Source: Alphaproteobacteria bacterium (GTDB lineage: Bacteria; Pseudomonadota; Alphaproteobacteria; UBA828). From it: a stretch of 64,000 bases of DNA. Every line of letters starts with the position of its first letter. Position 1 is the stretch's first letter. Below, piece by piece: positions 13,615 through 58,552 of this stretch. The notes below the pieces were generated by a model that saw nothing but the letters and a program-made list of their open reading frames with translations, did no database searches and was not told the DNA's origin. A program made the position numbers and the translations under genes. The stretch lies in the NCBI GenBank assembly GCA_963422645.2, contig CAXXVO010000017.1, forward strand, positions 160,001-224,000. Reading direction: 5' to 3'.

Positions 13615-16128
13615 TCAGACTTCCTGACCTCGTGATGCTGGCTGTTCTGGGCAGCGTGCCGGGAACTCCTTGAATTCTGATACATTTCGGTTGTTTCAGG
13701 CGGTTTTTCGCTGGGTGTCGCGCCCGAGGTCTGATATTATAATTTGATACCAATTGCACGGTCTCAACCATGCCCAGTACCCTCCCAATGTGCCCTCCAG
13801 AGGCGGTCTCGATCGGCAACAGCTGCTTCGCCGTCCTGATCTCGGACGACACCTTCACCTACTTTTCCAACCTCATTCCCTTTGACAGCCACGCCGCCGA
13901 TGACCGCACGGCCATGCTCTTGCGGATCGGCCGCCTCGCGGCGATCAGCGCGGTCTCGCCGCAGGAACTGGCTGACGCTTTCGCTGTCTCGCGCGCGACG
14001 GTGCAGCGCGCACGACGGCGCTACCTGGCCGAGGGCGAAGCGGGGTTCATGAAGCCCCGGCGCGGTCGCGGGCCGTCGGTGTTCACTCCGGAGTTGGCGG
14101 AGAAGGCGACGGCGTTGCTGGCATCGGGCCTGAGCGGCTCTGCGGCGGCCCGGGTTCTCGGCGTGTCAGCGCCATCGGTCAACAAGTGGCGCCGTCAGGG
14201 ACTGATCGGCAACACGGAGGCGGATGGGGAGCCCGGACGCTCAGCGCTGGCTGCGCCGCCTGACGCGGGTGCGGCTCCTGAAGGCCGTGTCGATGAAGAG
14301 AGTACCGGTGCCCCGGGGCCGGAGACGGCGCCGGGGCTGGAAGCGCAGCCGCAAACGGATCGCAGCGCGCGCGATCGGCGGGACCGGCAGGCGCCGATGG
14401 GGCGTGCGACTTGCGATGTTCCGGCTCGGGTTCTGGCCAGTTGTGGACAGGCGGGGCCGGTCGAACCGCAGTTCGCCGCCGCCGCCCGCGGTGTCCGCTT
14501 CGGCGGCGTGCTCGCCGCCCTGCCGGCCCTGCTGAAGGAAGGTCTTCTCTCCGAGACCGGTCTCCTGCCATTGCTGCCGAAGGGCTATTACGGCTTGCCT
14601 ACGATCCTGCTCTTCCTGGCCTTCATGACCTTGGCGCGGGTGCGCAACCCCGAGAGCCTGCGCTACCAGGCGCCGGGCGAATGGGGCGCCATTCTCGGCC
14701 TCGATCGCTGCCCCGAGGTCAAGACGCTGCGCCGCAAGATCGCTCTCATCGCCGACGACGAGGCCGGCGTGCGGGCGTGGCAGCTCGCCCTTGCCAGGCG
14801 CTGGCAAGGCCGACGAGCCGGAGCTCTGGGCGACGCTGGCCATCGACGGGCACGTCAAGGTCTACTCCGGCCGCAAGGGGCGCTTGCCCAAGCACTTCGT
14901 CTCGCGCGAGAAGCTGTGCCTGCCGGCGAGCGCCAGCTACTGGATCAACGCTCTGGGCGGCAAGCCGCTGCTCTGTCTGCACAAGCCGCTGGACCCGAAG
15001 ATGGTCGCGGCCATCGAAGCCGACGTGGTGCCGGCGCTGCAGGAGCTTGGGATCGTTGGCGCCGGGGCGCCGGACCTGACCGCCGAGCATCCCGGCCAGC
15101 CGGCGCTCACCCTGGTCTTCGACCGCGAGGGCTGGAGCCCGGATCTGTTCCGCCGGCTGGCGAGGCGCGGCGTCGCCTGCCTGACCTGGCACAAGAACTT
15201 CAGGGGCGAGGACTGGCCGGCCGAGGACTTCGGCGCGATGACCGTTCCCATTCACGGACCGGCGGCGGACGGCAGCGCCACCATGCGGCTGGCTGAGAAG
15301 CCGGTGACGTTGCCGAACGGCTTCAGGGTGCGCCAGATCCGCCGCCTGCTCGACAACGGCCGTCAGGTGCCGCTGATCACCACCGATCCGCACAAGCCGA
15401 TGGCTGAGGTTGCGGGCGCCATGTTCTCGCGCTGGTCGCAGGAGAACTTCTTCAAGTACATGCGTGACGAGTTCAATCTCGACGCCCTGCCGACCCACGA
15501 GCTCGAGCCTCTCGATCCCGCCGCCATGGTCGTCAACCCGCTGCGGCGGGCCTATGACAAGGCAATCCATCGCCTCGACCGCCAGCTTGGCCGCCTGCGC
15601 AACCGCATCGCCGACACGGCCCGGAAGAAGCAGCCGACGGCGGAACTCAGGAGGGAAGTCAGGGACCTCCAGGATGTCCGCGACATCGTCAGGGCCAGCC
15701 GCAGGGAGACGCCCAAGCACTGCCGGGCCGGCGACCTCGACGAAGCCGAGCAGCTCGATGCCTTGCCCGCGCGCGAGCGCCTCCTCCTCGACGTCATCCG
15801 GATGATCGCCTACCGCGCCGAAACCCGCATGATGCTTCCCGTCATGCAGGCGCAGGGCCACAAGCCCCATCCCCGGAAACTGCTTCAAGCGCTGCTCACC
15901 GCCGATGCCGACATCCTGCCGGATCCTGGCAATGGCCTCCTGCGGGTCCACATTCTTGGCCTCGCAAACGACGCCTGCGACCGTTGGATCGATGCGGTTC
16001 TGAGCGACCTGAACGCCACCGAAACGGTCTTCCCCGGCACCCGTCTGCGCATAGTCTACGACATCGACGGGGCCTCGGAATCCGCGCGGCTCGTGTCACC
16101 TAAAATCAGCAGAGGTCAGGAAGTCTGA
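13615..16128 (+). mobile_element. Unclassified IS (~2.5 kb) inserted in IS66 tnpC
   Basis: 17-bp IR TCAGACTTCCTGACCTC / GAGGTCAGGAAGTCTGA; TSD TCC (or ATCCT if ends are one base shorter). Confidence 0.88.
13770..16128 (+). pseudogene. Large putative transposase with N-terminal HTH repeats, frameshifted near 14806
   Basis: Two overlapping frames; removing one A in TGGCAAGGCCGAC gives ...RRWQADEPELW...; DGH, FDREG and RWSQENFFK DDE-like motifs; stop codon inside right IR. Confidence 0.75.
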
Positions 16129-34728: not shown

Positions 34729-34930
34729 TGTCAATCGGCTTTCAATACTGACCCCCGATCGGCGTGCAAAATTGACCCCCCTGAGTGGCACGGCGGAGGT
34801 TGTCCCGGTAGCCAATAGGGGGGACCCGCGCGGCTTCGTGTGGCGCCCTGCGCTACGCGGAGCGAAGCCGCGTGGGGGGTCCCTGTTGGCCCACCGGGGC
34901 AACCGGGCCGCAAGGGAGGCCGGCGGCGGG

Positions 34931-35659
34931 TCAGGAGCGGTTCTTGAAGCGCCAGCTCTCGTTGCCGGTCTCGATGATCTCGCAATGATGGGTGAGGCGA
35001 TCGAGCAGCGCTGTGGTCATCTTGGGGTCGCCGAAGACGGATGGCCATTCGCCGAAGGCGAGGTTTGTGGTGATGACGATCGAGGTGCGCTCGTAGAGCC
35101 GGCTCATCAGATGGAAGAGCAGCTGCCCACCGGCCTGGGCGAAGGGCAGGTAGCCGAGCTCGTCGAGGATGACGAAGTCGCGGCGGACGAGCTGGTCTGC
35201 AGTGCGGCCCTGGCGTCCGGCGCGAAGCTCGGCCTCGAGGAGGTTGACCAGGTCGACGACGTTGTAGCACCGGCCGCGCGCGCCCTTGCGGATGCAGGAC
35301 CGCGCGATGGCGACGGCGAGATGGGTCTTGCCGGTACCGGTGCCGCCGACCAGCACGATGTTGCGTTTGCCCTCGAGGAAGCCGCCGCCGGCGAGCTCCT
35401 GGATCAGGGGCTCGTTGACCGGCGAGGCGGCGAAGTCGAAGTCGGCCAGCTCCTTGACCGTCGGCAGCTTGGCGGAGGCCATCTGGTACTTGATCGAGCG
35501 GGCCCTCTTGTCGGCGATCTCGACCTGCAGCAGCGTACCGATGATCTGTTGCACCGGATGGCGGCGCTTGAGCCCGTCGGCAAGGATGTCGTCGTAAGCG
35601 GCGCGCATACCTGCGAGCTTCAGCTGGGTCATCATCTCCAGCACATCATGACGCTCCAT
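34931..35659 (-). CDS. istB: IS21 helper ATPase
   Basis: [33 protein letters not shown]. Confidence 0.95.
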
Positions 35660-37160
35660 GACCGGCCTCCCTCAGGCTGTCGTAGCGCTGACAGTCGGCT
35701 ACCGGCTTGTGGCGAAGCTGCAGGCCCTCGGGCGTCGGGATGATTGCCGGCGGTGCCGGCTGGCGCTGCCGGGCGAGGATGTTGAGCACCACGTCGGCGC
35801 TGCAGGCACCGCAGTCGAGCGTCTCGGCACAGGCCGCCTCAACCGCCTCCAGTCCGTCCTCCAGCACCGCCGCGAGCACCTTGACGAACTGCCGGTCGCC
35901 GTCGTCGTGGCCCGCGAGCCGGGTTCGCAGGCGGCCGAGCGCGTTGGGCAACTGCCAGTCCTTGAAGGGCGCGCCATTGCGTAGCGCGCCGGGCTTCCGC
36001 GTCAGGATCGGCACGTAATGCCACGGATCGTAGACGAACCGGCCGCGCCCGAAGCTGCGGGGGTGCTCGGCAACGGTCTCGCCGTCCTGGCGGATGACGA
36101 TCCGATCGGCATAGGCCCGCACGTCCACCGGCCGGCCGACGGCGCGGGCCGCGACGCTGTACTGGTTGTTGTCGAAGCGCACCAGACAGGTCTTCGAGAC
36201 CGACACCTCGCTGGCATGGAAGCCGTCGAAGGGGCCGCGATACGCCATCAGGAAGGGCTGCTCCTCCTCGAACACCTGCCACACCGTCTTGCCCGGGATT
36301 GTCGGATGCGGATGCTTCTTGGCGTCCTCGATGCACCGATCCATCAGCCACTCGTTGATCTCGGCGTAGGAGCGGCCCCGCGGGATGGGCACGAACAGGC
36401 GGCCGCGAAGGTCACCCACCTGCTTCTCGACCTGCCCCTTCTCCCAGCCAGCCCCTGGCGTGCACGCCACAGGCTCCACCAGATGGTGCGAGCACAGCTC
36501 CTGGAAGCGGCGGTTGTAGTCCCGCTTCTTGCCCACGAAGATCGTGCTCACCGCCGTCTTCATGTTGTCGTAGATGCCCCGCCGGCAGACCCCGCCGAAG
36601 AAGCGGAAGGCACGCTCGTGCGCCTCGAAGACCATCTCCTGGCTCTCGCGGGGAAAGATCTGGACCAGATACATCCGGCTGTGGCACAGCCGCATGTGCG
36701 CCGCCTTCACCCTGGTCGTCGCGCCCGACAGACGCGCGTACTCGTGGCTCCAGTCGAACTGGTAGGCCTCGCCGGGATCGAAGATCAGCGGCACATAGGC
36801 CTGCGCCGGCGACAACAGCCGCCACCGGCGCCGCCAGGCCCTGGCATAGCGGCGAACCGCGTCATAGCCGCCCTTGTAGCCCAGCGACACAAGGTCTTCA
36901 TGAATCCGCAGAAGAGACAGCCGATCCTTGCGTGCCTTCTTCTCGTTGGCCTTCAGCTGGCGCTCAAGCTCCTCCACCCACAGCCCAAGCTTCGGCATCG
37001 GCTGGATCTTGCGCTCGTAGCTGTGCGAGGTCGCATCGCCCCGCACCACCTTGCGTATCGTGTTCTTGGAAACCCTCAAATCCCGGGCGAGCTTCTTGAT
37101 CGGAACGCCCTTCACCAGATGATCCCGACGGATCTTCGCGATCGTTTCCACAACCAGCAT
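35646..37160 (-). CDS. istA: IS21 transposase
   Basis: [26 protein letters not shown] motifs. Confidence 0.95.
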
Positions 37161-37279
37161 CTCCCCCACCACCCCGTCCGTCCAAACGACGAGGTGTGTT
37201 CATGGACACAAATCCAAGGGGGTCAATTTTGGACGCCGATCACCCCCAATAGGGGGTCACTTTTCCACGCTTAACAACA

Positions 37280-37358
37280 CATAGTCTACGACATCGACGG
37301 GGCCTCGGAATCCGCGCGGCTCGTGTCACCTAAAATCAGCAGAGGTCAGGAAGTCTGA
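37280..37358 (+). mobile_element. 79-bp right-end remnant of the unclassified IS seen at 13615-16128
   Basis: Same sequence as 16050-16128, ending GAGGTCAGGAAGTCTGA. Confidence 0.9.
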
Positions 37359-40849: not shown

Positions 40850-41174
40850 GCGCCGCGCGGCCGAACTTCGACCCGCACCTAAAACACCTCTCCCTGTCCC
40901 ATATGTCCGCTACGATCATAGCATACTGTAATTGCAGCCACTTTGAATTGTCAGGCGCTATCTCGCAAGCGTATCGTCAGCGGATTCATTGCAACGCTTG
41001 CGCTTTCCTGCGCGGCTTCGTCGCTGCCGGCCTGCGTATTCGTTCGGTATCCGTAAGCGTTCGTTCAGGCCGTGGAAGGGTACGCCGGCATTGTGTCCGC
41101 TCAAACGCATTCCCGACCGCGACCGCTGAGACTCTAGCGATTGAGGGGTAACCATCCGGCGTAGGCCGCCTGTA

Positions 41175-41184
41175 TGTTGTTAAG
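41175..41184 (+). repeat. Tip of an IS21-type terminal repeat, continued at 42893-42913
   Basis: TGTTGTTAAG + CGTGGAAGATTGACCCCTGAT resembles the IS21 tip TGTTGTTAAGCGTGGAAAAGTGACCCCCTAT (reverse complement ending at 37279). Confidence 0.75.
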
Positions 41185-41229
41185 CTTCCACCGGCGCGGC
41201 GCTCCGGCTCGGTCGCGGGAGTAACGGGG

Positions 41230-41445
41230 GCTTGTGTCTGCGACGCCTCGGTCGTGAACTGGCGGCGGGTGGGGTGAAGAGGCCGTTCGTGCACTGGCGT
41301 GCTGTAGCGGCACCCGCTGTTAAGCTTGGCCCGAACCATTTTGTCGGCTCCGGTCACTGATGGCGCGGGTTTCCCGCGACCTCGTTCAAGAGAATGGGAC
41401 TTCGACCATGGTTCCTCCCCGCTCGCGACGGAGATGAAAGGCGGG
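41230..41445 (+). ncRNA. Putative bridge/seek RNA of IS110 element A (boundaries approximate)
   Basis: Two parallel CACTG-hairpin-guide modules; TGTTAAGC (41318-41325) equals target, TCAAGAG (41386-41392) equals own right end. Confidence 0.65.
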
Positions 41446-41455
41446 AGGATGTTCC

Positions 41456-42874
41456 ATGGCGCGCAAGTCTCGAAGAACCCGTCGCCTCAGGGTGGTGAAC
41501 CCTGACTGCGCAGGGATCGACATCGGCAAGGACCGGCACTTCGTGGCGGTCGAGGCGGAACGCAGCGATGAGCCGGTGCGTTCGTTCGGCTCCTTTACCC
41601 GCGATCTGGCGGCGATGGCGGCGTGGCTGGCGTCGTGCGGGGTGACGAAGGTCGCAATGGAGTCGACCTCGGTCTACTGGATCCCGGTCTACGAGACGCT
41701 GGAGCGCGCGGGCTTCGAGGTGATGCTGGTGCCGCCGCGCATGACGAAGCAGATCGGCGGGCGCAAGAGCGACGTGCTGGACTGCCAGTGGATCTGGCAG
41801 CTGATGTCCTACGGTCTGCTGCGGGGAGCGTTCCGTCCGGGCGACGAGGTTTGCCCGCTGCGCTCCTACGCCCGCCAGATGAGGCGGCTGACCGAGGACC
41901 GCTCCCGCTGCGTCCTGCACATGCAAAAGGCGCTGACCGAGATGAACGTCAGGCTCGACTCGGTGATCGCCAACATCACGGGACTGACCGGCCAGCGCAT
42001 CCTGCGCGCGATCGTCGACGGCGAGCGTGACCCGGAGCGCCTGGCGACGCTCCGCCACCGGGGCATCAAGGCCGACGCCGATACGATCGCCGCGAGCCTT
42101 CAGGGGACGTGGCGCGAGGAGCATCTCTTCGCCCTCGAACAGGCCATGCAGCGCTACGACTTCCTGACCCGGCAGATCGACGACTGCGAGGCCCGGGTGA
42201 TGGCCGAGGTCGAGCGCCTGACACCGCCGGACGATCCCCCGGAGGGCGGTGCACCGGACCCTGCCCCCGGCACGACCTCGGACACCGCGTCGGGCCGCTC
42301 CGCGAACGCCGCAACCAACGACACCGGCAAGGAGGGCATCCAGCCCCTGGCGTTGCGCAAGATGATGGGCGTCGACCTCACCGCGATCCCCACCGTCGGT
42401 CCCGGTACCGCACTGGTGATCGCCTCGGAGATCGGCCCGGACTTCTCCGCCTTCCCCTCCGCTCAGCACTTCTGCTCCTGGCTTGCGCTCGCGCCGGGAA
42501 CCAGGATCAGCGGCGGCAAGAATCTCCCCGGCAAGTCGCCGAAGGCGGTCAACCCCGTCGGACAGGCCCTGCGCTTGGCGGCCATGGCCGCGCGCCGCAG
42601 CCAGACCTTCATCGGCGCCAAGCACCGCGCAAGGCTCGCCCGAATGGACACCCCCGTCGCGATCAAGGCGACCGCCCGCGAACTCGCCTGTCTGATCTAC
42701 CTCATGGTGACCGAGGGCCAGGAATACGTCGAGCAGGGCATCGGCGCCTACGAGAAGCGGCGCCTCAACAGAAAGTTCGCTCATCTCGACCGCCAAGCCC
42801 AAAAGCTCGGGTTCCAACTCATCCCGAAAACGCAAGGAGAGGAAAAACAGAACCCAATGCCGTCAATCGCTTAG
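41456..42874 (+). CDS. IS110-family recombinase/transposase (472 aa)
   Basis: GIDIGK, AMESTSVYW, KSDVLD (DEDD); C-terminal LAPGTRISGG serine motif; GGGAGG RBS. Confidence 0.93.
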   Translation: MARKSRRTRRLRVVNPDCAGIDIGKDRHFVAVEAERSDEPVRSFGSFTRDLAAMAAWLASCGVTKVAMESTSVYWIPVYETLERAGFEVMLVPPRMTKQIGGRKSDVLDCQWIWQLMSYGLLRGAFRPGDEVCPLRSYARQMRRLTEDRSRCVLHMQKALTEMNVRLDSVIANITGLTGQRILRAIVDGERDPERLATLRHRGIKADADTIAASLQGTWREEHLFALEQAMQRYDFLTRQIDDCEARVMAEVERLTPPDDPPEGGAPDPAPGTTSDTASGRSANAATNDTGKEGIQPLALRKMMGVDLTAIPTVGPGTALVIASEIGPDFSAFPSAQHFCSWLALAPGTRISGGKNLPGKSPKAVNPVGQALRLAAMAARRSQTFIGAKHRARLARMDTPVAIKATARELACLIYLMVTEGQEYVEQGIGAYEKRRLNRKFAHLDRQAQKLGFQLIPKTQGEEKQNPMPSIA

Positions 42875-43068
42875 GCATCTGTTACTCAAGAGCGTGGAAG
42901 ATTGACCCCTGATTGGAGATGCCGTAATGGGGCTTGGCGCCGGCGTGCAGCGTCTCGGCCTGTCGCGATGACGGCGAATCGGTTGTCGTTGCCCTTACAC
43001 GCGTAGCGTGTTCACGGGGTCTTGCCGCAAGGCGCGCCCCAATTCCTCTGGAGGAAAGGGCAACGACA

Positions 43069-44109
43069 ATGGACGTCTGTATCGGGCTGGATGTATCGCT
43101 GGCAAGCACGGCGGTTTGCGTTCTCGACGAGAAGGGCAAGATCGCGACCGAGGCGCAGGTCGCCAGCACGCCTGAAGCGCTGGTTGGGTTCCTGCACAAG
43201 CTGCCGCACGAGATCACCGCGATCGGTCTCGAGGCCGGTCCCTTGTCCCACTGGTTGCACAAGGGAATGACCGACGCCGGCTTCGAGGCCGTGTTGATGG
43301 AGACCCGGCAGGTAAAGGGTGCGCTGAAGGCCATGCCGATCAAGACCGATCGCCGGGACGCCGAGGGCATCGCACGGCTGTTGCTGATGGGGTGGTTTCG
43401 GCCGGTGCACTGCAAGTCGGTGTCATCGCAAGAGATGCGAGCCCTCCTGACCTCGCGCAAGTCCGTGCTGGACGCGATCATCCGCCTGGAGGTCTCGCTG
43501 CGCGGCGTCCTGCGTAACTTTGGCCTGAAGCTGGGCCTGATCTCGAAGGGCCGCTATGAGGCCCGAGTGCGGGAGTTGGTCGCCGGCAACGCGATGCTGG
43601 AAGCGGCAGCCGAACCGATCCTGGGCGCGCGGGCGGCCCTGCGCCGCGAGTTCGCCGAGCTGGAGAAGCTGGTCCGCACTCTGGCAAGGCAAGACAGGGC
43701 ATGCCGCCTGTTGATGACCATGCCGGGCGTGGGGCATGTCATAGCCCTGACCTTCAAGTCCGCGATCGACGACCCGGAGCGGTTCCGAAGATCGAAGGAT
43801 GTCGGCCCCTGGGTAGGGCTGACGCCGGCGCGGGAGCAGTCCGGGGAGAGGGATATTGTCGGCCGGATCACCAAGGCCGGCGATGCCGGTCTGCGCGCGG
43901 CTCTTTACCAAGCCGCAACGGTGATGCTGAACCGCACAGGGCCGAACTGGCTGAAGGCTTGGGCGCTACGTTTGGCGAAGCACAGGGGCAAGAAGCGCGC
44001 GACCGTTGCCTTGGCCCGGCGCATCGGTGTTGTGCTTCACCGAATGTGGCGGGATGGAACCGAGTTCCGCTTTACGCGCGAGGAAGCGATGGCGCTTCGG
44101 ACGGCATAG
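43069..44109 (+). CDS. IS110/IS1111-family recombinase/transposase (346 aa)
   Basis: IGLDVS, GLEAG, KTDRRDA (DEDD); GLTPAREQSGE serine motif; GGAGG RBS. Confidence 0.93.
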   Translation: MDVCIGLDVSLASTAVCVLDEKGKIATEAQVASTPEALVGFLHKLPHEITAIGLEAGPLSHWLHKGMTDAGFEAVLMETRQVKGALKAMPIKTDRRDAEGIARLLLMGWFRPVHCKSVSSQEMRALLTSRKSVLDAIIRLEVSLRGVLRNFGLKLGLISKGRYEARVRELVAGNAMLEAAAEPILGARAALRREFAELEKLVRTLARQDRACRLLMTMPGVGHVIALTFKSAIDDPERFRRSKDVGPWVGLTPAREQSGERDIVGRITKAGDAGLRAALYQAATVMLNRTGPNWLKAWALRLAKHRGKKRATVALARRIGVVLHRMWRDGTEFRFTREEAMALRTA

Positions 44110-44164
44110 GCGCGGCTGCATCCCATCGGCAGTCAGCGAGGAGAGGAGGAAAGAGCCGCGCCTG

Positions 44165-44360
44165 AAGGTGGGCGAGCCACCAACGTCCCCTCGCCGGGAC
44201 GCGGTCCCCGATGATGCACGTGGGCCCACTTGTTTGCCGAACCGGCCTGTCGTGTTCGAGCACGCTGTGGAGATAGGCACTCGGGAACCGATTTGGACTG
44301 GGCATGATGTTGGCAGCCGATGCGCTGACCACGGACAGAAGCGAGAACCCGGCGAAGGAC
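44165..44360 (+). ncRNA. Putative bridge/seek RNA of IS1111-type element B (boundaries approximate)
   Basis: Stem 44202-44211/44281-44290 encloses GGGCCCACT and TGGAG (target); next loop has GGCAT and ACAGAAG (donor junction). Confidence 0.75.
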
Positions 44361-44552
44361 ACAAGACGTTGAGCAAGCGCGAGATCGATACGGTCGGCCC
44401 CATTGCACCTGACACCGGCAACCTCCTCCGCGCCTCACCCGGCGCCTCATAGCCAGGCCGAAGGAGCCCCTACACCACGCCAGGAAAACAACTGATTGGC
44501 GCGACAATGATCTATTGAAAATCGAGCTTGACGGGAAACGCCCCATTACAGA

Positions 44553-44632
44553 AGTGGGCCCCTGGGGCCGGACAGTTTCAGGCGGCCGATTTGACCGGCT
44601 TGCGGGACTGCTCCTCCTCGAAACGGTCGGGG
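44553..44632 (-). mobile_element. IS3-family right-end remnant (its terminal 3 bp are at 42914-42916)
   Basis: Minus strand PDRFEEEQSRKPVKSAA* then CTGTCCGGCCCCAGGGGCCCACT|CCA, an IS3-like end; family assigned from recalled similarity. Confidence 0.6.
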
Positions 44633-44939
44633 TGTCAACGCCGGATGAAGATTCGGCCAGAGGGCGGCGCAAAAGACTGCCACTCTGGGTGATGCGTCGT
44701 TGTGACGGTTTTTCGGCGGGCGCGGTCCGTGGAGCCATCCAGAGCTCAAGCGGTCCGCGCGCGCCGGCCGACCGGAGGGCGGCCTACTGGTTTCGGTTTG
44801 TCGAGGTTCAACTTTGCGCCGTCAACGGACACGCCTGATGGCGGGATGACGGTGAGTGCCCGAGCACCGTCACGGCAGGTGGCGGGGGCTGGGGCTGGGC
44901 GCCTTGGCCGATCGGTGTCGGTCGTCGGCGTGCCGGGGT

Positions 44940-45704
44940 TCAGCTTGCGGTCTTGTTCCTGCGTGCACGGCTCTGGCTGAGGCGGTAGCTGTCGCCGTTC
45001 ATCTCGAGGATGTTGACGTGGTGGGTGAGACGATCGAGGAGCGCCCCGGTGAGGCGCTCGGAGCCAAAGGTCTCGGTCCATTCGTCGAAGGGGAGGTTGG
45101 AGGTGATCAGGGTGGCGCCCCGTTCGTAGCGCTGGGAGACCAGCTCGAACAGCAACTCGGCGCCGGTCTTGCTCAGCGGCACGAAGCCGACCTCGTCGAT
45201 GATCAGCAGCTTGAGACTTGCCAGCTGCTTCTGCAGCCGCAGCAGTCGTCATTCGTCACGCGCCTCCATGAGCTCATGCACCAGCGCCGCTGCGGTGATG
45301 AAGCGCACGCTCAGCCCCTTCTGGCAGGCGGCCAGTCCGAGCCCCAGGGCGACATGGCTCTTGCCGGTGCCCGATGGGCCGAGGGCGATGACGTTCTCGC
45401 GCCGCTCGATCCATTCGCAGCGCGCCAACTCCAGCACCCGCGGCTTGTTCAGCGCGGGCATGGCCTTGAAGTCGAAGCTGTCGAGGCTCTTGGCGAGCGG
45501 GAACTTCGCCGCCTTGATGCGCCGCTCGACCATGCGCCGTTCGCGCTCGATCAACTCCAGCTCCGCCAGCCGGGCCAGGAACTGGATATGATCCAGGCCC
45601 TCGGCCGCGCACTGGTGCGCCACTTTCTCGTATTGGCGCAGGAAGGTCGGCAGCTTCAGGGCCTTGAGGCGGTGCGCCAGCAGGATGTGGGGCGTGTCCG
45701 TCAT
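44940..45704 (-). pseudogene. istB: istB with internal stop codon
   Basis: GPSGTGKSH...EARDE*RLLRLQ...IDEVGFVP; TGA at 45249-45251. Confidence 0.88.
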
Positions 45705-47071
45705 GCCGCGTCCTCCGACAGCAGGCACATGTAGCTGGCCGCCGAGGTCCTGCCGACGGTAGCCTTCGGCAGATAGGGGTAGACATCGAGGTCGAGCTTC
45801 GGCGGGCGCTTCTCGAGGCGGCACAGCACCAGGTGCTTGACCGCGTCGAAGCCTATGGCGCCCAGGCGCAGGGCATCCTTCACTGCGGCGTGGAGATCCT
45901 CCAGCCCGAAGCTCTCCAGCAGCCGCAGGACCTGCACGTACTCCCGCCGCCCCGCCTTGAGCGCGCGTGCCTCCATCAGGCGGCGCAGGGTCTGGAAGGC
46001 GGGCGGCAGGTCCCATCCGGCGAGCGGCGCTGCCTGGTCCAGGGCGCCGATCTTCTGCTCGATCAGGGGCAGATAGTGGATCGGCTCGAAGATCATGTCC
46101 TCACGCTCATAGGACCGGGGATGGCGGGCGATGACGTCTCCGCCACAGCCGATCACCACTCGATCGACGTAACCGCGTACCCAGACGTCACGATGGCCAT
46201 AGGCCACCGGCACCGAGTAGTCGTTGGTCCGATAGCGAACCAGAGACTGCGAGCTGACCTGGCCGGGAGCCTGGTCACAGGCCTCGAAGGGCGTAGCCGG
46301 CGGCGCGGCCATGGCCGCCACATCCCGCGCCAGGCGCTCTCCGATGGTCTCGCGGTGTCCGCGCAGGATATCGCCCTGGCGGCTGTGGCATTGCTCCTCG
46401 AGCCGCAGGTTGAACTCTTCCCAGCTCGCAAACCGTGGCAGCGGCACCATGAAGTTGCGCCGGGCCAGGATGCGCGACACCAGGCAGCGGTCGTTGTCGT
46501 AGAGAACCGATCGGGGAACCCCGCCGAAGAAGGCGAAGGCATGCACATGCCCGTCCATCCACGCCTCGGCCGTCGCCGCAGGGTAGGCCCGCACGTAGCA
46601 GGCGTCGCTGTGCGGAAGATCGAACACGAAGAAGTGCGCCTTGCGCGCGATACCCCCGATCACCGCCCGCGCCTCGCCGAAGTCCGCCTGCCCATGCCCC
46701 GGCGGATGGATCAGCGGCACGAACATCTCTCGCCGCCGGCGCCGATGCTCGCGCACATGATCCTTCACAATCGTGTAGCCGCCGCTGAACCCGTGCTCGG
46801 CCCGAAGACGGTCGAAAATGCGCTTCGCCGTGTGCCGCTGCTTGGGCAGCTGCTCCAGATCGTCCCGCAGCCACCCGTCGATGATCTCGATGAACCCGTC
46901 CAGCTTCGGACGCCGAAGCGGCGCCGTCCGCCGATAGCCCGGCGGCGCCGAAAACTGCAGCATCTTCTTCACGCTCTCGCGTGAAATCCCGAAGTGACGC
47001 GCCGCAGCCCGCTCACTCATCCCGTCCCGGCAGGCGAGACGGACCTTCCGATAAAGTTCCACGGTATGCAT
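45701..47071 (-). pseudogene. istA: istA with apparent in-frame deletion in the catalytic core
   Basis: QADFGEA and YDND present, but the KGxVE motif is missing (VSRILA|RRNFMVP). Confidence 0.75.
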
Positions 47072-56001: not shown

Positions 56002-56203
56002 TGTCAATCGGCTTTCAATACTGACCCCCGATCGGCGTGCAAAATTGACCCCCCTGAGTGGCACGGCGGAGGTTGTCCCGGTAGCCAATAGGGGGGACCC
56101 GCGCGGCTTCGTGTGGCGCCCTGCGCTACGCGGAGCGAAGCCGCGTGGGGGGTCCCTGTTGGCCCACCGGGGCAACCGGGCCGCAAGGGAGGCCGGCGGC
56201 GGG

Positions 56204-56932
56204 TCAGGAGCGGTTCTTGAAGCGCCAGCTCTCGTTGCCGGTCTCGATGATCTCGCAATGATGGGTGAGGCGATCGAGCAGCGCTGTGGTCATCTTGGGG
56301 TCGCCGAAGACGGATGGCCATTCGCCGAAGGCGAGGTTTGTGGTGATGACGATCGAGGTGCGCTCGTAGAGCCGGCTCATCAGATGGAAGAGCAGCTGCC
56401 CACCGGCCTGGGCGAAGGGCAGGTAGCCGAGCTCGTCGAGGATGACGAAGTCGCGGCGGACGAGCTGGTCTGCAGTGCGGCCCTGGCGTCCGGCGCGAAG
56501 CTCGGCCTCGAGGAGGTTGACCAGGTCGACGACGTTGTAGCACCGGCCGCGCGCGCCCTTGCGGATGCAGGACCGCGCGATGGCGACGGCGAGATGGGTC
56601 TTGCCGGTACCGGTGCCGCCGACCAGCACGATGTTGCGTTTGCCCTCGAGGAAGCCGCCGCCGGCGAGCTCCTGGATCAGGGGCTCGTTGACCGGCGAGG
56701 CGGCGAAGTCGAAGTCGGCCAGCTCCTTGACCGTCGGCAGCTTGGCGGAGGCCATCTGGTACTTGATCGAGCGGGCCCTCTTGTCGGCGATCTCGACCTG
56801 CAGCAGCGTACCGATGATCTGTTGCACCGGATGGCGGCGCTTGAGCCCGTCGGCAAGGATGTCGTCGTAAGCGGCGCGCATACCTGCGAGCTTCAGCTGG
56901 GTCATCATCTCCAGCACATCATGACGCTCCAT
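56204..56932 (-). CDS. istB: IS21 helper ATPase
   Basis: Same translation as 34931-35659. Confidence 0.95.
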
Positions 56933-58433
56933 GACCGGCCTCCCTCAGGCTGTCGTAGCGCTGACAGTCGGCTACCGGCTTGTGGCGAAGCTGCAGGCCC
57001 TCGGGCGTCGGGATGATTGCCGGCGGTGCCGGCTGGCGCTGCCGGGCGAGGATGTTGAGCACCACGTCGGCGCTGCAGGCACCGCAGTCGAGCGTCTCGG
57101 CACAGGCCGCCTCAACCGCCTCCAGTCCGTCCTCCAGCACCGCCGCGAGCACCTTGACGAACTGCCGGTCGCCGTCGTCGTGGCCCGCGAGCCGGGTTCG
57201 CAGGCGGCCGAGCGCGTTGGGCAACTGCCAGTCCTTGAAGGGCGCGCCATTGCGTAGCGCGCCGGGCTTCCGCGTCAGGATCGGCACGTAATGCCACGGA
57301 TCGTAGACGAACCGGCCGCGCCCGAAGCTGCGGGGGTGCTCGGCAACGGTCTCGCCGTCCTGGCGGATGACGATCCGATCGGCATAGGCCCGCACGTCCA
57401 CCGGCCGGCCGACGGCGCGGGCCGCGACGCTGTACTGGTTGTTGTCGAAGCGCACCAGACAGGTCTTCGAGACCGACACCTCGCTGGCATGGAAGCCGTC
57501 GAAGGGGCCGCGATACGCCATCAGGAAGGGCTGCTCCTCCTCGAACACCTGCCACACCGTCTTGCCCGGGATTGTCGGATGCGGATGCTTCTTGGCGTCC
57601 TCGATGCACCGATCCATCAGCCACTCGTTGATCTCGGCGTAGGAGCGGCCCCGCGGGATGGGCACGAACAGGCGGCCGCGAAGGTCACCCACCTGCTTCT
57701 CGACCTGCCCCTTCTCCCAGCCAGCCCCTGGCGTGCACGCCACAGGCTCCACCAGATGGTGCGAGCACAGCTCCTGGAAGCGGCGGTTGTAGTCCCGCTT
57801 CTTGCCCACGAAGATCGTGCTCACCGCCGTCTTCATGTTGTCGTAGATGCCCCGCCGGCAGACCCCGCCGAAGAAGCGGAAGGCACGCTCGTGCGCCTCG
57901 AAGACCATCTCCTGGCTCTCGCGGGGAAAGATCTGGACCAGATACATCCGGCTGTGGCACAGCCGCATGTGCGCCGCCTTCACCCTGGTCGTCGCGCCCG
58001 ACAGACGCGCGTACTCGTGGCTCCAGTCGAACTGGTAGGCCTCGCCGGGATCGAAGATCAGCGGCACATAGGCCTGCGCCGGCGACAACAGCCGCCACCG
58101 GCGCCGCCAGGCCCTGGCATAGCGGCGAACCGCGTCATAGCCGCCCTTGTAGCCCAGCGACACAAGGTCTTCATGAATCCGCAGAAGAGACAGCCGATCC
58201 TTGCGTGCCTTCTTCTCGTTGGCCTTCAGCTGGCGCTCAAGCTCCTCCACCCACAGCCCAAGCTTCGGCATCGGCTGGATCTTGCGCTCGTAGCTGTGCG
58301 AGGTCGCATCGCCCCGCACCACCTTGCGTATCGTGTTCTTGGAAACCCTCAAATCCCGGGCGAGCTTCTTGATCGGAACGCCCTTCACCAGATGATCCCG
58401 ACGGATCTTCGCGATCGTTTCCACAACCAGCAT
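56919..58433 (-). CDS. istA: IS21 transposase
   Basis: Same translation as 35646-37160. Confidence 0.95.
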
Positions 58434-58552
58434 CTCCCCCACCACCCCGTCCGTCCAAACGACGAGGTGTGTTCATGGACACAAATCCAAGGGGGTCAAT
58501 TTTGGACGCCGATCACCCCCAATAGGGGGTCACTTTTCCACGCTTAACAACA

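Follow-up and report, generated by a model that had tools for sequence, protein, structure and literature searches.

Bridge RNAs are a kind of guide RNA known since 2024, and the systems closest to the one described here are IS621, ISEc21, the IS1111 group and ISPpu9. In the published text, IS621 has a CT core and a defined order of guides (PMC11208160). The same guide order is given for ISEc21, whereas IS1111-type elements are described with the reverse order, the complement of the top strand coming first, and with a downstream non-coding region (text of PMC11187229). For ISPpu9 of Pseudomonas putida KT2440 the text of one report gives an AG repeat, a REP target and a 5′ untranslated region (UTR) of 244 nt that is covered by a stable antisense RNA of about 180 nt (Asr9) and whose structure limits translation (PMC8450116). 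The papers on this element, as far as their text goes, assume a bridge RNA in the leader and give no loop map (PMC8450116, PMC12288879). Here we analysed a window of 64,000 nucleotides (the whole stretch of DNA under study; positions 160,001 to 224,000, forward strand, of contig CAXXVO010000017.1, assembly GCA_963422645.2) from an alphaproteobacterium of the lineage UBA828. Positions 41185-42892 of the window are very probably an intact ISPpu9-like element of the IS110 family that is guided by a bridge RNA and programmed to insert 10 bp inside the istA-proximal repeat of IS21-family elements. Judged from its sequence, the predicted guide RNA is a bridge RNA and the element belongs to an ISPpu9-like clade with an AG core. 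The insertion and its target comprise the following parts.

41185-42892, plus strand: IS110-family element of 1708 bp, with limits from its flanks, three full copies, an empty site and a dimer junction in a relative.
41175-41184, plus strand: left target half, made up of the 10 terminal nt (TGTTGTTAAG) of the left-end inverted repeat of an IS21-family element, with the AG core at 41183-41184.
42893-42916, plus strand: right half of the target, interior of an IS21-like repeat (CGTGGAAGATTGACCCCTGATTGG), by comparison with the intact tip TGTTGTTAAGCGTGGAAAAGTGACCCCCTATTGGGGG.
42886-42892, plus strand: right terminus TCAAGAG of the element, donor half-site and AG core.
34729-37279, minus strand: intact 2551-bp IS21-family element with IstA and IstB, limits by comparison of its two copies, tip at 37270-37279 unoccupied.
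56002-58552, minus strand: second intact copy of the 2551-bp IS21-family element, tip unoccupied.

At the left junction ...TGTTGTTAAG is followed by CTTCCACC..., at the right junction ...CTCAAGAG is followed by CGTGGAAGATTGACCCCTGAT, and limits shifted by the 2-nt AG core (41183-42890) are equally valid. The two ends are not inverted repeats of each other. A stretch of 271 nt precedes the start codon of the recombinase gene, and 18 nt lie between the end of its stop codon at 42874 and the end of the element at 42892. The original prediction, made from the letters of the window, had placed the element between TGTTGTTAAG and CGTGGAAGATTGACCCC, and these proved to be the two halves of an IS21-family left-end tip. 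In all, 34 nt of the IS21-like tip survive at this insertion, 10 to the left and 24 to the right of the element, and a second IS110-family element begins at about 42917. The first 17 nt had also been equated with the istA-proximal tips of the two IS21 copies in the window; the 17-mer TGTTGTTAAGCGTGGAA indeed occurs exactly at 37263-37279 and 58536-58552 (both minus strand), the matches ending at 37279 and 58552, where dinucleotide shuffles expect none.

In the source genome the element is present in three full copies at 100% identity. One of them (on C5) is frameshifted by the loss of one G, and the two others are 100% identical with the full frame of 472 amino acids (aa). The genome further contains a right-hand part, a left-hand fragment of 200 nt, a remnant of 29 nt from the left end (C5:449756) and a full paralogue of 77% identity, remnants of the element being sited at C18:55926, C5:449756 and C8:563486. 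All left junctions in the genome (4/4) read TGTTGTTAAG followed by C, with unrelated DNA before, and the left flanks thus end in TGTTAAG as had been anticipated. At the right junctions CTCAAGAG is followed twice by CGTGGAAGATTGACCCC and twice by CACGCTTTGTTGACCCCCC, which represent two IS21-like kinds. The exact empty site of the C3 copy was found at C21:52137, where TGTTGTTAAG is joined to CACGCTTTG.

The target itself belongs to the IS21 family, with istA and istB lying between inverted repeats that start with TGT and have the tips TGTTGTTAAG... and TGTCAATCGG.... In the 2551-bp element IstA carries the domains rve and Mu-transpos_C_2, and IstB scores 253 bits on PF01695. TGTTGTTAAG is limited to the istA-proximal end, the other end starting with TGTCAATCGG. 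Out of 85 occurrences of TGTTGTTAAG in the genome, 70 run on uninterrupted as CGTGGAAAAGTGACCCCCTATTGG, with TGTTGTTAAG joined directly to CGTGGAAAAG (CGTGGAA), and at 67 of these 70 tips the IstA match starts 107 nt further in. One could object that TGTTGTTAAG is the left terminus of the IS110-family element itself, since the same 10-mer precedes every left end both here and in a relative of 94% identity. The copy at 41318 would then be an end repeat, for example a recombinase binding site, rather than a guide, and there would be no RNA-guided targeting of IS21. We find this hardly credible. The 10-mer is joined directly to CGTGGAA in the 70 uninterrupted tips and to CACGCTTTG at the empty site, in tandem dimers it is absent where right end meets left end, and relatives with other guides have other flanks, which match those guides. 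Because of these tips, the empty site and the dimer junctions we assign TGTTGTTAAG to the target, and the outcome that had been named as fatal to the original prediction, namely that other copies carry the 10-mer as their own left end, is contradicted. The insertion splits the outermost 10 bp from the rest of the IS21 left-end repeat and would disable that end. Independent of the question of targeting, the genome of 5.9 Mb contains about 70 copies of the amplified 2551-bp IS21-family element, and the stretch 37280-37358 of the window is repeated at 16050-16128, which means that the DNA flanking one IS21 copy has itself been duplicated.

Within the element, the predicted guide RNA and the segments that are compared with target and donor DNA are located as follows.

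41185-41455, plus strand: predicted bridge-RNA gene and 5′ UTR of the recombinase gene, the 271-nt left end, alignable in 23 relatives.
41219-41225, plus strand: GAGTAAC, the left partner in a covarying inverted repeat, which may be a subterminal repeat or an additional donor guide.
41268-41274, plus strand: 5′ strand of the closing helix P1, pairing with 41418-41423 (93.5% of cells paired, 4/6 pairs changed on both sides).
41281-41284, plus strand: 5′ strand GGCC of the outer stem of the target loop, pairing with 41328-41331 (helix 2; 89.1% paired, 2/4 changed on both sides).
41287-41292, plus strand: putative right-target guide TCGTGC, 5′ strand of the target loop, complementary to the core G and the first right-flank bases (top strand).
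41295-41316, plus strand: inner hairpin P2 of the target module, TGGCGTGC...GCACCCG (helix 3; 96.3% paired).
41318-41324, plus strand: putative left-target guide TGTTAAG, 3′ strand of the target loop, 5 nt and AG core.
41333-41339, plus strand: 5′ strand GAACCAT of helix P3, pairing with 41408-41414 and enclosing the donor module (helix 4; 99.4% paired, 5/7 changed on both sides).
41358-41384, plus strand: inner hairpin P4 of the donor module, TGATGGCGCGG...CCGCGACCTCG (helix 6; 99.6% paired, 5/10 changed on both sides).
41386-41392, plus strand: putative donor guide TCAAGAG, 3′ strand of the donor loop, matching the right end of the element, 5 nt and AG core.
42881-42887, plus strand: GTTACTC, the right partner of GAGTAAC in this covarying repeat, placed just outside the donor half-site.

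The evidence for guides comes from their covariation with insertion sites and element ends. We fetched 78 related loci (48-94% protein identity; of 510 matched stretches 439 were confirmed as relatives, with 80 kept). From 23 distinct relatives the 5′ ends were aligned over their whole length. For the left-target and donor tests, element boundaries were set by alignment without the guide words, which avoids circularity. TGTTAAG at 41318-41324 has the same letters as the left flank on its top strand and would pair with the bottom strand. Among 18 distinct pairs of guide and flank, 13 match at 7/7 positions, two at 6/7 and two at 5/7, the remaining flank being cut by a contig end. At the five non-core positions the mean agreement is 4.5, compared with 1.87 +/- 0.26 in permuted pairs, a value that none of 10000 permutations reached. 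Within the window the word TGTTAAGC (41318-41325) occurs four times against 0.23 expected, the three other occurrences being the insertion junction and the two IS21 tips. Seven of the 8 nt first proposed as target match are borne out by these comparisons. The eighth base is not, since C41325 stays C in alphaproteobacterial relatives whatever their right flank (in the Pseudomonas ones it is A) and is therefore probably part of the scaffold.

The other half of the target appears to be read by TCGTGC at 41287-41292, whose positions are as variable among the relatives as those of the left guide. In register, its complementarity to the right flank reaches 3.57/6 versus 2.51 +/- 0.23 in permutations (0/5000 as high; 26 families, 43 distinct pairs), and the signal is limited to shift 0 (0/2000 permutations), with shifts 1-4 not significant. 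The guide of the studied element forms five Watson-Crick pairs with the CACGC-type target, and three Watson-Crick and three wobble pairs with the CGTGG type. The earlier remark that convincing right-side guides could not be found thus has to be revised for the target and stands for the donor.

On the donor side, TCAAGAG at 41386-41392 equals the right end at 42886-42892 as predicted, and the correspondence with the last 7 nt of the element is kept in 23/23 rows comprising 7 distinct types, with 1 of 10000 permutations as good. Taken on its own the word is within chance (its 8-mer neighbourhood has 44 one-mismatch matches versus 45.6 expected), so the donor 7-mer is significant only through covariation. 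In the 77% paralogue from the same genome the guide CCCATAG equals the flank CCCATAG, and the donor guide TCGAGAG equals the right end TCGAGAG. Among the relatives AG closes each of the 18 distinct left flanks and each of the 23 right ends, and it also ends both guides, which marks it as the crossover core. A second covarying pair of segments is formed by GAGTAAC and GTTACTC. This inverted repeat is kept over at least 5 nt in 23/23 rows and occurs in four types (GTTAC/GTAAC, TTTAC/GTAAA, GTTCC/GGAAC and GTTTG/CAAAC); its arms match in 18/18 distinct pairs versus 8.8 in permutations (0/5000 reach this number). It is a candidate for a subterminal DNA repeat or a further contact between RNA and DNA. 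No clear signal was obtained when the 5′ strand of the donor loop was compared with the left-end start or the right flank, or the 5′ strand of the target loop with the left-end start; the counts came down to 42 and 77 of 2000 at best, in either case at one isolated shift, with 20 tests made. An all-against-all matrix of columns and sites was dominated by the split of the relatives into alpha and gamma groups. Overall, covariation across about 20 diverged relatives bears out the core of the original prediction, which held that the 5′ end encodes a bridge-RNA-like guide for the IS21 tip and the element's own right end.

The left end also has a conserved fold. A comparative fold was derived from the 23-row alignment, and further proposed helices were counted on the same alignment. 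Of all cells in the comparative fold 90.5% are paired, and 17 pairs show changes on both sides; no shuffle out of 500 was as high, and slid controls gave 36-47% of cells paired. The two parallel modules of CACTG, hairpin, guide and TGG that had been noticed in the 5′ non-coding end are thus real, and the two-module fold is conserved in the 23 relatives. Covariation between guide and DNA is by itself blind to the strand, and in ISPpu9 an antisense RNA of about 180 nt lies over a 5′ UTR whose structure limits translation (text of PMC8450116). It is thus conceivable that the functional RNA is antisense like Asr9, that the words are antisense guides or regulatory, and that the sense fold is an mRNA leader controlling translation. 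We consider this quite improbable. U.G closes both inner hairpins in 23/23 sequences, and G.U alternates with G-C at the column pair 217-304 (G.U in 11/23). Read in antisense these pairs become A.C mismatches, which assigns the conserved fold to the sense strand. Control of translation would moreover leave the flank-matched words in conserved loops unexplained. An antisense regulator may exist alongside the guide RNA.

The protein encoded downstream of the predicted RNA has the features of an IS110-family recombinase.

41456-42874, plus strand: recombinase gene, 472 aa, with candidate catalytic residues D22, E69, D106, D109 and S352.

It has hits to PF01548 (1e-21, 77.8 bits, cut-off 29) and PF02371 (5.5e-12, 46.3 bits, cut-off 21.3), corresponding to an N-terminal RuvC-like DEDD domain and a C-terminal Transposase_20 domain with a conserved serine. 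The match to the solved IS621 transposase (8wt6) is weak and spans both domains (E 5.3e-6). In alignments the motifs that hold D22, E69, D106, D109 and S352 are kept across the relatives and ISEc21; S352 lies within RISGGK, aligned with VSSGK of ISEc21, while the alignment to IS621 is offset there by one residue. The lack of terminal inverted repeats, the site-specific insertion and the 2-nt core at both junctions are likewise in line with the IS110 family. Among 8000 candidate proteins scored, 7871 were related at E <= 0.001, none of these 7871 bore a specific insertion sequence (IS) name, and the best match among plasmid records (49% identical) is labelled only 'IS110 family transposase'. 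The element had been described as a long form with a low-complexity insertion. The length of 472 aa and a stretch of 40 aa rich in P, T, G, A and D (residues about 255-294, in the interdomain linker) agree with this description, whereas the implied peculiarity does not: the relatives have 443-475 aa (close ones 458-475, those from Pseudomonas 443) compared with 358 in ISEc21, and the stretch varies in sequence and length within the clade. Judged from these sequences, the P/T/G/A/D-rich linker is a trait of the clade.

By analogy with IS621, ISEc21 and ISPpu9, a sense transcript of the left end would bind the DEDD/Ser recombinase, and its first loop would pair with both strands of the IS21 tip. 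The second loop would pair with the junction of right end and left end in an excised circle or a tandem copy. Strand exchange at AG would then give the arrangement flank-AG-element-AG-flank.

The insertion sites of relatives are consistent with such a process. For the copy tables of relatives the ends were located with the guide words, and these tables were used only for right flanks and copy contexts. The 94% relative is represented by a complete metagenome-assembled genome, in which we examined 24 first-copy insertions. Their left flanks read TGTTAAG exactly in 22 cases and TGTCAAG in one, the last being the second unit of a tandem. On the right, six are flanked by IS21-like interiors with TTGACCCC, three by related interiors ending in GCCGAT and one by an unrelated site, and the others by the element's own left end in head-to-tail dimers (11), a variant left end (2) or a left-end-like sequence (1). 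The 11 dimer loci (L017, L018, L019, L021, L023, L025, L026, L028, L029, L030 and L035, with at least three units in L030) show the junction of right end, AG and left end as natural DNA, without the 10-mer TGTTGTTAAG. Tandem duplication of whole IS110 modules has already been described in the text of a preprint (bioRxiv 2026.08.14.744561). At L033 and L034 a variant left end comes after a full copy, an order reminiscent of tnp-ssr9 in ISPpu9. L020 and the second copy in L017 are nested in the guide-coding DNA of another copy, directly after ...CACCCGATGTTAAG (...GCACCCGATGTTAAG); since guide DNA and target are identical, the element can insert into its own guide DNA. Relatives from Pseudomonas, which we do not equate with ISPpu9 itself, share the RNA scaffold at 52-55% protein identity and are inserted between GCGAGGGAG and CTTGCTCCCGC.

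These insertions also bear on the question whether the element can still move. The 70 perfect tips without insertion, compared with three insertions of which one (C5) is frameshifted, suggest that its present activity may be low, and the remnants at C18:55926, C5:449756 and C8:563486 point in the same direction. The element could accordingly be a decayed relic whose guide matches record a past specificity, with no movement now. We regard this as unlikely, though it deserves more weight than the two alternatives discussed above, since two copies are 100% identical with the full 472-aa frame and since the near-identical relative has at least 24 insertions, tandem dimers and nested copies in one genome, which indicates that the type was recently active. 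For the empty tips, either the element is now nearly silent in this genome, or the burst of IS21 is younger, or intact tips are protected.

Several results weigh against an intact, guided element as proposed here. Both target guides fit the 70 unoccupied tips no worse than the sites that are occupied. The right-target guide is loose, and in the most-amplified relative (the 94% one, with 26 copies) its third position is mismatched with all right flanks seen. We detected no right-donor guide: the 5′ strand of the donor loop (TCCGGTC) barely varies, and against the left-end start 337 of 2000 permutations were as good. A proposed outer stem of the donor loop (41343-41346/41403-41406) was dropped because only 38.5% of cells were paired. 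As a single sequence, 41185-41458 does not fold better than shuffles (z = 0.62, 137/200 at least as good), and a scan of 40900-44800 against Rfam at E up to 1 returned no bridge-RNA family, only a chance hit to H19_2 at E 0.074. Scans for consensus sigma-70 promoters in the left end and in the natural junction of right end and left end (L018) found nothing, and neither did scans of the same two regions for terminators. Metatranscriptome contigs from four studies (X15, X17, X18 and X20) span 41175-42892 of a variant of about 95% identity; such contigs are uninformative on strand, ends and transcription. In three of four runs the left end has a somewhat greater summed word depth, a measure from contigs that can neither rank parts of the element nor show transcription. 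RNA, promoter and activity are thus predictions, with RNA binding, circles and insertion activity carried over from relatives. Finally, the reversal of guide order relative to IS621 leans on the text of the published papers, the direct check consisting of short single-sequence matches in ISEc21 only. With these points taken into account, a guided and intact element is still in our view the very probable reading.

The studied element resembles IS621 (Durrant 2024, Hiraizumi 2024) in its DEDD and Ser recombinase (with the weak match to 8wt6), its predicted RNA gene in the left end, its target and donor loops, the presence of the 2-nt core in the guides and its short right end, and its target loop carries guides for both target halves. 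In contrast to IS621, the guides identical to the flanks lie on the 3′ strands of the loops and the 5′ target guide is short and loose (the order in IS621 being that given in the text of the papers). The core is AG rather than CT, CT being read only on the strand opposite to the gene, no right-donor guide is seen in the donor loop, and the recombinase has 472 aa compared with 326-328 aa. Donor guides for both halves, the guide order as published in the text on IS621 and its CT core are thus absent here. ISEc21 shares the upstream non-coding region and also targets another IS, at a conserved stretch of IS3-family transposase genes (text of PMC11187229). In ISEc21, however, the match to the bottom strand comes first, the recombinase has 358 aa, and the target lies in a coding region rather than in a terminal repeat. 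Flank-identical words in the non-coding region of ISEc21 occupy positions 105-115, 5′ of a flank-complementary word at 128; these are short, single-sequence matches, and their order agrees with that in the text of PMC11187229.

The seekRNAs of the IS1111 group (ISEc11, ISPa11 and ISKpn4) have, in the text of Siddiquee 2024 (PMC11187229), the complement of the top strand 5′ of the complement of the bottom strand, and the same order was found here, with 41287-41292 (top strand) preceding 41318-41324 (bottom strand). A covarying inverted repeat near the ends is a possible further likeness. IS1111-type non-coding regions lie downstream, whereas here the predicted RNA lies in the 271-nt left end and 18 nt follow the stop codon, a position that fits the IS110 group. 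The subterminal repeats of IS1111 elements measure 7-17 bp; those of the studied element measure 5-8 bp, are asymmetric, with spacings of 7 nt to the right end and 35 nt to the left end, and may instead be an RNA-DNA guide. The order of target guides is therefore reversed relative to that described for IS621 and ISEc21 and matches that reported in the text on IS1111, even though the predicted RNA gene is found upstream, where IS110-group elements have theirs. An equivalent description, given that AG and the CT core are reverse complements, is the IS621 geometry on the other strand, with the genes inverted relative to the crossover site.

ISPpu9 is most similar, with AG at both junctions, a long structured 5′ UTR ahead of a recombinase of about 440 aa and a strictly specific insertion site; it forms circles and tandem modules (text of PMC8450116 and PMC12288879). 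The studied element differs from it by an IS21-tip target instead of REP and by a recombinase about 30 aa longer, owing to the variable linker and a C-terminal tail. Membership in an ISPpu9-like clade is indicated by the AG repeat, a 5′ leader of about 245-270 nt and the RNA scaffold shared with the Pseudomonas relatives, which are kept apart from ISPpu9. IS4321 and IS5075 of the IS1111 group reportedly have a fixed insertion place inside the inverted repeats at the termini of transposons from the Tn21 family, going by the title of a 2003 paper by Partridge and Hall. Here both the subgroup and the target family are different, and since neither is among the 451 plasmid records matched by the 472-aa protein at E <= 1e-5, we infer that they are distant. 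Targeting of another mobile element thus has precedents in ISEc21, with IS3-family genes in the published text, and, by title, in IS4321/IS5075 with Tn21-family repeats. In the text of the literature consulted we found neither a map of the loops in ISPpu9-like RNAs nor a member of the IS110 family that targets IS21 ends; the supplement of PMC11208160 may list a predicted ISPpu9 RNA.

Neither published layout is matched in full: the one described here differs from each in one defining feature or more, by its guide order and AG core and by a one-sided recognition of the donor with a remote covarying segment. That it is both as described here and not yet in print seems possible to us, at somewhat below even chances. 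With similar reserve we suggest that the ISPpu9-like clade, which would have thousands of members by relative count, might represent a third guide-RNA layout of the IS110 family, in which the RNA gene lies upstream, the AG site is mirrored, the guides on the 3′ strands are strict over 7 nt, and the donor is read by one loop strand and by the remote segment GAGTAAC (41219-41225). If so, the position of the RNA gene and the order of the guides would be separable, though the two together distinguish both groups in the elements tested by Siddiquee. The first half of the target would be almost the sole determinant of specificity, which would also explain the insertions into the element's own guide-coding DNA.

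Directly adjacent to the studied element lies a second, unrelated member of the IS110 family.

42917-44544, plus strand: element B, a second, unrelated IS110-family element recognised by Pfam, limits approximate.

Element B encodes a recombinase of 346 aa (43069-44109) and has non-coding ends of 152 nt (5′) and 435 nt (3′), in which word scans gave nothing clear. It starts 24 nt inside the same IS21-like tip, and its other copies, which occur in either orientation, follow ...CCCCTATTGG inside the palindrome CCCCCTATTGGGGG found in IS21 tips. As element B begins inside the same tip, one 34-nt IS21 end serves two different elements, both presumably RNA-guided. Three further copies of element B share in their right flanks the sequence that follows it here (ATTACAGAAGTGGGCCCCTGGGG..., 44545-44960 of the window); 44633-44960 recurs at C8:579175, and 44545-44960 looks like the end of another repeated element. 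Further along, at 44950-47071 on the minus strand, lies a second, diverged IS21-like element with an IstA of 456 aa, shorter than that of the amplified one, and an IstB frame that appears interrupted near 45250; no recognisable TGTTGTTAAG tip was found within 300 nt upstream of its istA.

In the whole genome PF01548 has 68 matches. A further IS110-family element with a recombinase of 421 aa forms units of 1768-1769 bp in about 48 copies, several of them in tandem arrays of 3-5 units (for example C11:48052-56900, C10:45253-48882 and C16:27571-31550). This 1769-bp repeat is not a copy of the studied element and lacks the RNA motif of the latter. At C18:55926-56125 (locus L006, 1247-1416, minus strand) the 200-nt left-end fragment ends exactly before the donor guide, at a group II intron (Rfam RF02001, 140 bits), and the same letters of the intron junction form the loose ends at 41386 in RNA-library contigs of two studies (X17 and X20).

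The studied element raises a puzzle for the organism, since 70 perfect landing sites in the same genome are still empty, and it adds a case in which one IS uses the end of another, highly amplified IS as a harmless landing pad. For the family, bridge RNAs and seekRNAs are being made into programmable recombinases, while mechanistic knowledge comes nearly entirely from IS621 and a few relatives. The large natural clade considered here has predicted RNA genes upstream, the opposite guide order, a strict and a loose target half and a possible extra donor contact. It offers a comparison for the features of the RNA that fix the direction of recombination, for the pairing needed in each half, and for intermediates linking the IS110 and IS1111 layouts.

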